Below are positions 60,501 to 63,500 of a DNA stretch of 64,000 nt, piece after piece (position 1 is the stretch's first letter; each line of letters begins with the position of its first letter). This DNA is from Flaccisagitta enflata (Eukaryota): the NCBI GenBank assembly GCA_965153355.1, contig OZ231126.1, positions 13,578,001 to 13,642,000 on the forward strand, given 5' to 3'. The notes below the pieces were generated by a model that searched no databases, had not been told where the DNA came from, and saw nothing but the letters and a program-made list of their open reading frames with translations. The position numbers and the translations under genes were made by a program.

Positions 60501-63500
60501 CGGGGCTTACGCAAGATGACTGGAATAAGTGCGAAGACCCAATCAATTATGGAGTCGGAAAATTCTACTCATTTCGAACAGATGATTGCTGTGATTGTCC
60601 AGAAATCATTTGTTTACCTTGTACAAATATCATCCTGGCAAACACCGCAGTTGGAATAGGTAATGATCACAAAAGGGTTGCGTGGTCAGCAGTACCTGAT
60701 GTCACTAAGTTTGTCAATGTAGGGATGAGGTAGTGACTAGTGAGGGAGACAGCGGCCTCTATGGAGCCAATGATCTATGATGTTTGGATAAAGGCGTATG
60801 AGCTAAAGGGCTTCAAAATGAGCCTCAAAACGGTGAATTGGGCCCTGGGATGAAGTTTGAGCTTTAAAGCTGAGGTTTGAGCCATTTGCGCCCCAAGGCA
60901 AGAATTGGTACCTCTCTGATTTCCTTGTAAATATCATAAAGCTATCTACCTCAACAGCGAGCTCCGGTTATTGGAAACTAACTTCTTGTTTTCTTTTCTT
61001 TTTTTCTTGTCAGAAATGAGGAATGAGACTCATCGACATTTCTTCTGTCAAAACGATTGTGATGAACCCGTTGGAGTCACAGATCCGGTCACCAAATGTC
61101 CCAACTTTGTCTGCAAAAGAAAACCGAGGAATGCATATCCAGTTCCGGTAAGTGTGTCGTAAGAGTGCGATGAACCTGTCGGAGTCACAGATCCCGTCAC
61201 CAAATGCCCCAACTTTGTGTGCAAAAGAAAACCGAGGAAAGTATACCCTGACCCGGTAAGTGTAATAAGAGTGTTATGAACTTGTAGGAGTAACCGATAC
61301 TGTCACCAAATGTCCAAACTTTATGTGCAAGAGAAAACCGAAGAAAGTATACCCAGTCCCGGTAATGCTAAGCCACTTGACATACACCAGGTGTTATTAC
61401 CGTTTTTTAGTTGTCTGTATTGTTTGCCTTTATGGTTTGTCGATCATATCCAGGTCATATCCCGCATTATGTTCTTGTGGGACATTGTTGACGTCTTCAG
61501 GTCTGTTTCATTGGTTTTGCCTGCCGAGTGCCGACACAACTTGTGGAGGGAGGTCACAAGAGGCTCTCGCATCAATGCTCATTTTTTTCCAAGTGCATCT
61601 GCGTTAGCCTAGAGCCCAAAGCCTATCTAACTTAACCTGTCCCCGAAATGTCTGCCTAGGCCAGGGACACTCATTTCTCATCTCATCCCTAACCACGCGC
61701 ATTTCCTGACAGCTTTTTACTCTTTTATGTCTTCAGGCCTGTAACGAGACTTGTCAGGAATTGGAGACAAAAACGGACAAATGTGGCTACAATTATGAGG
61801 TGTGCAAGTGCAGACAACCACCTGACTGTTTTCCGTTGGAGCCACCGGGAATCCCTTGTCATACTGTAGTAAAAGTAAGTTGTTTCAGTAATGATATGAG
61901 CTGAGCCATTTAAGACAGTGTCTTCGCCTCCAGATAACCGCCCGTTCAAATCGCCAAAAATCCCGTGTCATTCTCAATTGTGGAAGAATGTTTTTGATGA
62001 AATTACGAACCTTTCGGCCATAGAGCCCCGCATATGCCCAATATCCGAGTATTTCACAGGGTATGAGCAAAAACTTGGCCCACTAGTTGATAGTAAGATA
62101 GTTTTTCTACACAGCATTTTTTCCCTTTATTTTTCAGACTCCAATCGATGTTTTTGCGTGTGACCCAGATGACAATGAGAAATGTTTACAGTGCTATCAA
62201 TGGAACTACGAAATCAATCCCGTAAAAAATGTCAATCTTAACCAATCGGTAATAAATTCCTAATCAATTAGTGAACTGAATAAATCCATTCTATACAACC
62301 AATCACTTCATTTACAATACAGGCACCAATTTGATCAACATGATTGGGTAATAGGTATATCAGTTTCGCCGTATATTTTACATTCTTTTGTGCACTTATC
62401 ATCTCATGCTGCATTACCCATGCTTTTTTTTCAGTGTCAAGCTTGTGAAACGAAAGAGACGCTTGAAATCGGTTGTGGCAATTTTGAGGAAAGATGCGTT
62501 TGTCGCCAACCAAAAAATTGTCAACCTCCAAAACCAACTCCGCCAGATTGTCACCAAGTTGTAAAAGTCAGGAGTCCAAATCTGTCCGCGTGTGACAAAG
62601 ATGATCCCACCAAAGCATGTCAGCCATGTTATCATTGGAATTTCATTCCTATGGAGAAAAATATAACTAATATGGTAAAGTTCACGCACAATCCCAGATT
62701 TTTTCTCAAGGATGAATGTCGTCTTAGGACAATAAATGACTAATCACATAAAAGCCTCTGAATCAGAGATAATTCAATCCACTTAAAACAAAATAACTAG
62801 AAGAGTACTTCTTAACGCTATTTTGGTCCCCTCTTGACTGATGACTGGCAAAATATAATCATTTTAACCACTTTTTTTCCAGACATGTGACAGTCGATGC
62901 GAGTTTGAACGTCCGACAATTAGCGAATGCGGTTCTAACAGGGAATGCGTTTGTGTCGGCATTTCTGAAGAGCGCTGTCAACCCCCGCAGCCAAATCCGC
63001 ATCCCTGCTTCAATCTTACCAAGAGAGTCGTCCCTGACAGCTTCATGTGCAACCAGACCGAGGAACAGTCTTGTGTCCAATGCTTCACGTGGGACTATGT
63101 GGAGAGAGACTGCCCGCCATCAACCCCGATACAAGTAGGAAGTGTTGCAGTCGATCTTTAGAGAGCTGTCTGGTAAATTCCCAACCTGCTTGGTAACTAA
63201 TGAGAGTTTTGTCTGGTAGCTTTGGTAATTTTGGTAACGTTGGGGAAAGATTTGGTAACTTAAGTAACTTCGTCACTATTTCACTACTGTTATTGATTCT
63301 GTCTGTCTGTCTGTCTGTCTGTCTGTCTGTCTGTCTGTCTCTCTCTCTCTCTCTCTCTCTCTCTCTCTCTCTCTCTCTCTCTCTCTCTCTCTCTCTCTCT
63401 CTCTCTCTCTCTCTCTTGCTCTCAGTGTATGTCTTTTTTTTTTTTCGTTTTTCTCTCCATGCCGTTATTGCCGTTAGTGAAGCAGCCTGATGATCGACTT

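Follow-up and report, generated by a model that had tools for sequence, protein, structure and literature searches.

The exon array and its host gene

The window analysed here, the whole stretch of 64,000 nucleotides at G000:C1:13578001-13642000, lies within a 794-Mb genome of nine contigs. It contains part of a gene in which a complete exon (c0) is followed by two partial copies of itself (c1 and c2); the features of this gene are collected in Table 1. On re-reading the sequence, we recovered the three copies with the coordinates and motifs of the original prediction: the two later copies measure 92 nt, stand behind spacers of 16 and 14 nt, are both open, are each preceded by TAAG in phase 1 and each end in CCG/GTAA. 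The phases are compatible at both ends, with entry in phase 1 and exit in phase 0.

Table 1. Exons, spacers and splice sites of the host gene, in window positions
Feature	Position	Strand	Description and evidence
Upstream coding exon	59692..59783	+	Spliced alignment to P0010; homologous exon in the C4 paralogue
Exon before the array	60406..60659	+	Phase-1 donor after 60659; joint 60659>61014 in an X4 contig; same intron in C4
Full exon, c0	61014..61147	+	Strong acceptor (score 15.9); 4-Cys hairpin module; donor CCG/GTAAGT (score 11.1)
Spacer 1	61148..61163	+	16 nt; first donor and decayed exon piece; TAA at 61160-61162
Copy 1, c1	61164..61255	+	3' part of the exon; 3 of 4 Cys; terminal donor (score 11.1)
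Spacer 2	61256..61269	+	14 nt; second donor and exon remnant; frameshift
Copy 2, c2	61270..61361	+	3' part of the exon; more decayed than c1
Third donor and original intron	61362..61736	+	Donor GTAATG (score 7.3, about the family median); strong acceptor (14.1) at the intron end
Next exon	61737..61874	+	Phase 0; spliced alignment; probable join in an X4 contig
Three further exons	62138-62248, 62435-62674, 62883-63134	+	Alignment; last end read from the sequence

The copies correspond to the last 92 nt, or 3' two-thirds, of the 134-nt exon, and the first 42 nt of c0 and its pyrimidine-rich acceptor are missing from both. The array has a period of 108 nt across spacer 1, in frame, and of 106 nt across spacer 2, with a frameshift. 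The likeness of the spacers to c0 extends to a TGT common to a Cys codon and the donor tail, and judging from this match the TGT is likely the breakpoint of the duplication. Both spacers carry a TAA just before the first codon of the copy in this assembly. Read-through is indeed blocked, as had been proposed, by the TAA at 61160-61162 and by the frameshift in the second spacer. An assembly error behind both blocks is unlikely, because the second spacer is the same in a database ORF, P0001 (see below), and no single base opens both blocks. The RNA structure over 60990-61400 was ordinary (z 0.27), and therefore a docker-selector signal is absent.

The host gene extends past the end of the window, where a region aligns to the vWA part of P0010; its own vWA exons are identified by this alignment. 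It encodes a Cys-rich protein with seven family members, located on C1, C2, C3, C4, C6 (two) and C7. Exon c0 is single-copy in all six paralogues, none of which has copies after it. Full-length relatives from a profile search have a hydrophobic N-terminus, Cys-rich modules and a vWA domain at the end: PF00092 (VWA) was found in P0010 with an E value of 8.6e-19 and, above cut-off, also in P0013 and P0014. The best PDB sequence match to P0010 was proximal thread matrix protein 1, in the vWA part only. The host protein is probably secreted and may have a role in matrix or mucus. When scanned singly against Pfam, none of six exons scored above cut-off, and the Cys-rich part matched no family at cut-off; the ESM Atlas gave no match at 0.9 or more. 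In an AlphaFold model of the relative P0006 (4 sequences; pLDDT 77, pTM 0.38), beta-hairpins follow one another in a chain, and one of them corresponds to the array exon. A fold search with this model returned no Foldseek match at E<=0.001 and a best VIA Z of 2.2, values that do not imply fold novelty.

Repeats are found at other exon boundaries of the family. In the C3 paralogue, on the minus strand at about G000:C3:75848215-75848589, four 93-nt tandem units are 95-96% alike, and each consists of an acceptor tail and about the first 22 codons of the exon. The period of the C3 array is 3n, its read-through frame contains a TAA, and the whole exon is obtained from the last acceptor only. The C3 array is a young mirror image that spans the acceptor, and it demonstrates that duplications across an exon boundary have happened more than once in this family. 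In the window itself, a 42-nt tandem repeat with six copies (69% matches) occupies 58996-59256; it starts inside a possible Cys-rich exon at about 58853-59031 and crosses the donor of that exon, and is perhaps a third boundary-spanning repeat. The possible exon had no match in the C4 paralogue. At the window-equivalent 65016-65311, a phase-0 intron of the host gene contains a long (GAT)n microsatellite, and the C4 gene has one in the same intron although the other introns of the two paralogues no longer align.

Elsewhere in the window, on the minus strand, pieces at 7345-9477 carry an HELMHALG motif and end in a long Gly-Ser-Gly-Asn-Trp repeat; they look like parts of an astacin-type metalloprotease. 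Two related long ORFs on the same strand (45829-46623 and 49334-50359) contain several hydrophobic stretches and have a receptor-like look, and a further minus-strand ORF at 40857-41189 bears motifs that are presumably C-type-lectin-like.

Past selection on the copies and their age

The difference between c1 and c2 had been put at about eight synonymous and four amino-acid changes. That count actually belongs to c0 versus c1; c1 and c2 differ at six amino-acid codons and eight purely synonymous codons. Nei-Gojobori counts of synonymous and non-synonymous differences were 9/3 for c0-c1, 9.5/7.5 for c0-c2 and 9/6 for c1-c2, corresponding to dN/dS values of 0.066, 0.154 and 0.128. The binomial p values for the synonymous excess were 1.7e-4 (c0/c1), 2.1e-3 (c0/c2) and 1.5e-3 (c1/c2). 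We also simulated neutral divergence with a transition bias of 1-8 and a CpG bias of 1 or 5, in eight settings per pair and 3000 runs each. The probability of at least the observed number of synonymous changes was 0.0003-0.019 for c1/c2 and 0-0.0013 for c0/c1. The earlier view that such an excess is unexpected for dead DNA is borne out beyond chance by the formal dN/dS (0.07-0.15) and by the simulations (P<=0.019). These counts indicate that purifying selection acted on c1 and c2 and that they are not plain dead DNA.

The array appears to be about as old as the duplication that separated the C1 and C4 genes, because a tree of the 93-nt units leaves c0, c1, c2 and C4 unresolved in one group. 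The synonymous difference is 0.44 for c0-c1, 0.46 for c1-c2 and 0.34 for c0 versus the C4 paralogue, and C1 and C4 differ by 0.36-0.78 in six other exons. With C4 as the outgroup in a site table, the changes private to c1 were 5 synonymous to 1 non-synonymous, and those private to c2 were 5 to 5. Two of the five private non-synonymous changes of c2 are absent in P0001. Selection was weaker on c2, and weaker between haplotypes than between units. Neither copy has an indel in its 93 nt, and none of three homologous C1/C4 intron pairs is alignable.

Gene conversion from a paralogous gene had been named as another possible source of the synonymous excess, and the site patterns and the eight genome matches that we checked do not support it. 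No C4-private state is common to c1 or c2, which speaks against conversion from the C4 paralogue; none of the eight genome matches is a source closer to c1, and a DNA search gave two places only. Because of the selection counts, the lack of indels and the lack of either paralogue conversion or a closer source, it is most probable that c1 and c2 were being translated through the greater part of their history.

Splice signals around the copies

To build a splice model, P0010 and P0004 were spliced-aligned to the seven family genes with introns from 12 nt allowed, which yielded 92 intron calls. Twenty-one calls with an unshared intron position or otherwise doubtful were dropped (the shortest of them 65 nt), and the 71 calls kept, together with one RNA-supported intron, made up a set of 72 family introns, the shortest of 119 nt. 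Myosin genes served as a second set. Myosin-head matches numbered 123 over all nine contigs, a large myosin family. The 24 myosin introns called by both queries were at least 101 nt long, and four of them ended in TAAG, all preceded by T-rich tracts. Ten of 57 single-query myosin calls were 17-60 nt long and may be alignment gaps; among the 96 well-supported introns of the two families, none was under 30 nt. Measured against these minima of 119 and 101 nt, the spacers of 16 and 14 nt look too short to splice, as had been supposed.

Real family acceptors scored from -1.8 to 15.0 when each was left out in turn (n=72). The TAAG sites scored -3.9 (c1) and -4.9 (c2), below all 72 real acceptors, and the GAG sites two bases past them scored -7.6 and -9.2. 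Among 2281 decoy AGs, 43% and 36% scored below the TAAG sites of c1 and c2, and 22% and 17% below the GAG sites. An acceptor squeezed against a donor necessarily scores lower than an ordinary one. Another AG stands 11 or 9 nt upstream of the TAAG sites, inside the preceding donor, whereas none of the 72 real family acceptors has an AG within -14..-4. Judged by sequence score alone, neither c1 nor c2 has a recognisable acceptor of its own.

The donors, by contrast, are intact. They score 11.1 (c0), 11.1 (c1) and 7.3 (c2), all in phase 0, for a family leave-one-out range of -3.8 to 12.3, and the array thus has a single acceptor followed by several intact donors that share a phase. Between -3 and +7, donor 2 matches donor 1 letter for letter, though synonymous sites differ at 44%; the chance of seven identical sites at such a rate is small (p about 0.015). 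If the second or third donor were used from the single acceptor, the exon would be 242 or 348 nt long, and family exons reach 366 nt.

A probable second haplotype

The profile search also gave P0001, an ENA ORF on one 1090-nt metagenome contig, which is known as protein only, with TGA read as Trp, and which translates straight through the array locus. It was the sole match in a word-based protein search with the exon, and the same search with the upstream exon gave no match. P0001 agrees with the window at 37/40 upstream intron codons, 43/44 exon residues and 30/30 downstream intron codons. It has both copies, and its second spacer has the same frameshift and the same translation. Its first spacer is an open seven-residue linker, VNALNLQ, which places the exon and copy 1 in one frame. 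An open frame from donor 1 to donor 2 is therefore present in P0001 and absent in this assembly, with its TAA and frameshift.

Aligned with spacer 1, the linker differs by at least four substitutions and a 6-nt gap, a divergence well above that of the flanks. It resembles either spacer no better than shuffles do (22% and 14% were as close). The first donor of P0001 scores at most 8.5 if the codon CCG is kept. The linker could itself be a passable acceptor, which would speak against read-through: depending on the codons, it scores up to 7.6 in phase 0 and 3.3 in phase 1. Copy 1 of P0001 is mixed, with Leu5 as in c2 and Asp30 as in c1. From these mixed states and the linker, a further unit type and unequal exchange within the array may be supposed. 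It is also possible that P0001 is misassembled or comes from a sister species.

Between the haplotypes, differences amount to 2/31 residues in c1, 2/31 codons in c2, 1/44 in the exon and 3/70 intron codons. Read from the shifted frame, both differences in c2 would be non-synonymous: P0001 probably has Asp and Ile where this assembly has Tyr3 and Met19. These differences hint at a recent loss of constraint on the copies, in counts too small to test. In searches for the relatives' DNA, JGI metagenome scans by protein confirmed 0 of 51 candidates, and scans by DNA pattern gave just four chance matches of 21-26 nt. Differences of several percent were also seen between P0002/P0008 and the C3 locus (in intron translations) and between P0003 and P0010 (in a paralogous protein), which reflect either high polymorphism or cryptic species.

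RNA evidence

The sequencing runs that contain the sequence are marine metatranscriptomes, and four of them were aligned to 60392-62011. In X6, where about 6% of the raw reads were sampled, no read aligned to this region. Contigs of X1 and X2 cross the upstream intron, as DNA or pre-mRNA would, and end before the array. X4 provided two 151-nt contigs of depth 2, the sole informative RNA at the locus. One of them joins 60659 to 61014. The second aligns from 61732 with one other letter and leaves six letters unaligned. The last five bases of the intron differ from those of c0 at one place, from those of c1 at three and from those of c2 at two; because the end of c0 is the nearest, we read this contig as fitting a 61147>61737 join, with the end of c0 rather than that of c1 or c2. 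Across 61148-61687, coverage was zero in the four runs, and no junction into c1 or c2 was seen, in a sample of just two informative contigs that leaves room for minor forms.

A proposed ladder of alternative donors and its rivals

With modest confidence, we read the array as follows. Long ago, a tandem duplication spanning the boundary between the exon and its intron would have produced two further copies of the 3' two-thirds of the exon, each with the splice donor attached, so that a single acceptor came to be followed by three successive donors. This ladder of alternative donors would have let the exon grow by one or two hairpin modules. The copies would long have been translated by read-through of short in-frame linkers, and the choice of donor would have set one, two or three hairpin modules in the secreted protein. 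The linkers would later have broken, through the frameshift before c2 in both known haplotypes and through the TAA before c1 in this one. With a donor on each unit, splicing at the first donor would still yield the normal protein, and for this reason the breaks would have cost little. Both extensions seem to be off in the individual sequenced here, and a transcript spliced from donor 2 or donor 3 would carry a premature stop at least 93 nt ahead of the junction (93 nt for the c1 donor). By the usual rule, a stop at this distance makes such a transcript a likely substrate for decay. We infer both the splicing of longer exons, past or present, and the order of these events.

Several observations point to such a ladder. 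The donors were kept good while all four candidate acceptors score below every one of the 72 real ones. The open linker into copy 1 of P0001 would fit an exon extension, and two of the three known linkers are of 3n length. Both informative RNA contigs agree with use of the first exon and the first donor. On the other side, neither of these contigs shows a longer exon, and by our estimate an unconstrained 21-nt spacer would be both 3n and free of stops in about a quarter of cases. The TAA common to both spacers must, under a ladder, have arisen twice, have spread by conversion or be non-homologous, and c1 and c2 lack the first cysteine of the module, which may leave one cysteine unpaired.

The original prediction had instead proposed mutually exclusive cassettes with one copy per transcript, in which the phase-1 donor at 60659 would join the TAAG of c1 or c2 and the short spacers would bar double inclusion. 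This reading would account for some details. Both copies have an AAG in phase 1 directly before them, where the parent exon has none, and the spacers resemble the Cys-Gln-Asn codons of the exon minus one base. The loss of this base is common to both copies and therefore older than the c1/c2 split, and such an older shared change would explain the TAA in both spacers. TAAG acceptors do exist in the genome, yet those of the myosin introns have T-rich tracts and the ones before c1 and c2 do not; with no pyrimidine tract, decoy-level scores and a competing AG close upstream, the acceptors are what this reading lacks. Spacer length is no argument against it, because the accessible part of PMC4165533 gives 14 nt for egl-15 5B/5A (and 30 nt for let-2 9/10) as precedent; the missing acceptors are. 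Moreover, by alignment the product would lose 14 residues, including a family-conserved Cys, the copies show an excess of replacement differences between haplotypes, and no junction supports the reading in the two informative contigs. Taken with the open P0001 linker, this leaves the cassettes poorly supported, and we consider them improbable. A related reading, in which 18-nt (61148-61165) and 16-nt (61256-61271) introns are excised to join the three modules in frame, would account for selection on the copies despite the stop and the frameshift. Both stretches start with GT, end with AG and are in phase 0 at both ends, and the parent exon has no AG there. Their GAG acceptors, however, score lowest of the four candidate sites, introns as short are far below the family and myosin minima, and the second X4 contig is consistent with 61147 spliced straight to 61737, so we regard micro-introns as highly improbable. 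Taking the two routes together, we doubt that the copies are entered at tract-less AGs 14-18 nt past a consensus donor. If they were, 3' splice-site choice would have to work outside the usual model of branch point and tract, in contrast to the ordinary introns of this genome, with more than 100 nt and T-rich acceptors.

It is also conceivable, though unlikely, that the copies were never used here and arrived from functional sources that had already diverged, with the synonymous excess inherited. Lost or unassembled paralogues, a collapsed tandem gene array or conversion could have supplied them, each making part of this same unlikely case. The mixture of c2 and c1 states in copy 1 of P0001 indicates that units recombine, divergence among the paralogues does not exceed that of the copies (pS of 0.34 between the exon and C4), and both blocks to read-through would be expected. 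Against this stand the lack of any C4-private state shared with the copies, the lack of a closer source among the eight matches, the two places only in the DNA search, and the nearly identical breakpoint that two independent insertions would need. If instead the donor ladder holds, the locus offers a compact natural case of a duplication that brings its own splice donor, through which protein modules are gained and lost again without harm to the gene, caught while haplotypes differ, with an open linker in one and a stop in the other. For genome scans, the array illustrates that low dN/dS and compatible phases alone do not show mutually exclusive exons.

Comparison with known systems

In its protein, the host family is like other secreted Cys-rich proteins with vWA, such as P0010, in having a hydrophobic N-terminus, Cys-rich modules and a vWA end, and its Cys-rich part had no Pfam match at cut-off. 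In its gene structure, the array invites comparison with closely spaced exons. As far as the accessible part of PMC4165533 describes them, the intervening introns of C. elegans egl-15 5B/5A (14 nt) and let-2 9/10 (30 nt) have never been seen excised, and like these pairs the array has exon-like units 14-30 nt apart, too short to excise. The egl-15 and let-2 exons, according to the same part of that source, are RT-PCR-verified and whole, of 3n length and with their own acceptors. By contrast, the array copies are 5'-truncated, 92 nt long, without a detectable acceptor and known from their sequence. In human genes, steric exclusion goes with a donor-to-branch-point distance under 50 nt, as stated in the accessible part of PMC5740500. 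The array resembles OGDH 4a/4b and the human MXE clusters in that homologous exon sequences stand in tandem and each transcript is expected to carry just one form. It differs from OGDH 4a/4b, whose intron, according to the accessible part of PMC7969005, retains 118-131 nt and a pyrimidine tract of unusual length, in that the array leaves no room for such a tract.

Duplication across a splice boundary is a known source of new gene structure, as the accessible parts of PMC4974935 and PMC3443670 describe. In the literature searched, with partial coverage, we found no description of a donor-side ladder with such a history. The closest likeness is to potato RdRp (PMC4974935, as far as accessible), where the duplicated segment also crosses the exon-intron boundary and inherits the parent splice signal. 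There, the acceptor side was copied and a new intron was created; here, the donor side was copied twice and no intron is possible between the units, and unlike the RdRp case the copies show long coding constraint and then breakage. We conclude that the array is an old, formerly coding triplication of part of an exon, with its donors retained, and polymorphic at the first linker. The classes of mechanism are already known, and what differs is the double copying of the donor side, with long constraint followed by breakage.
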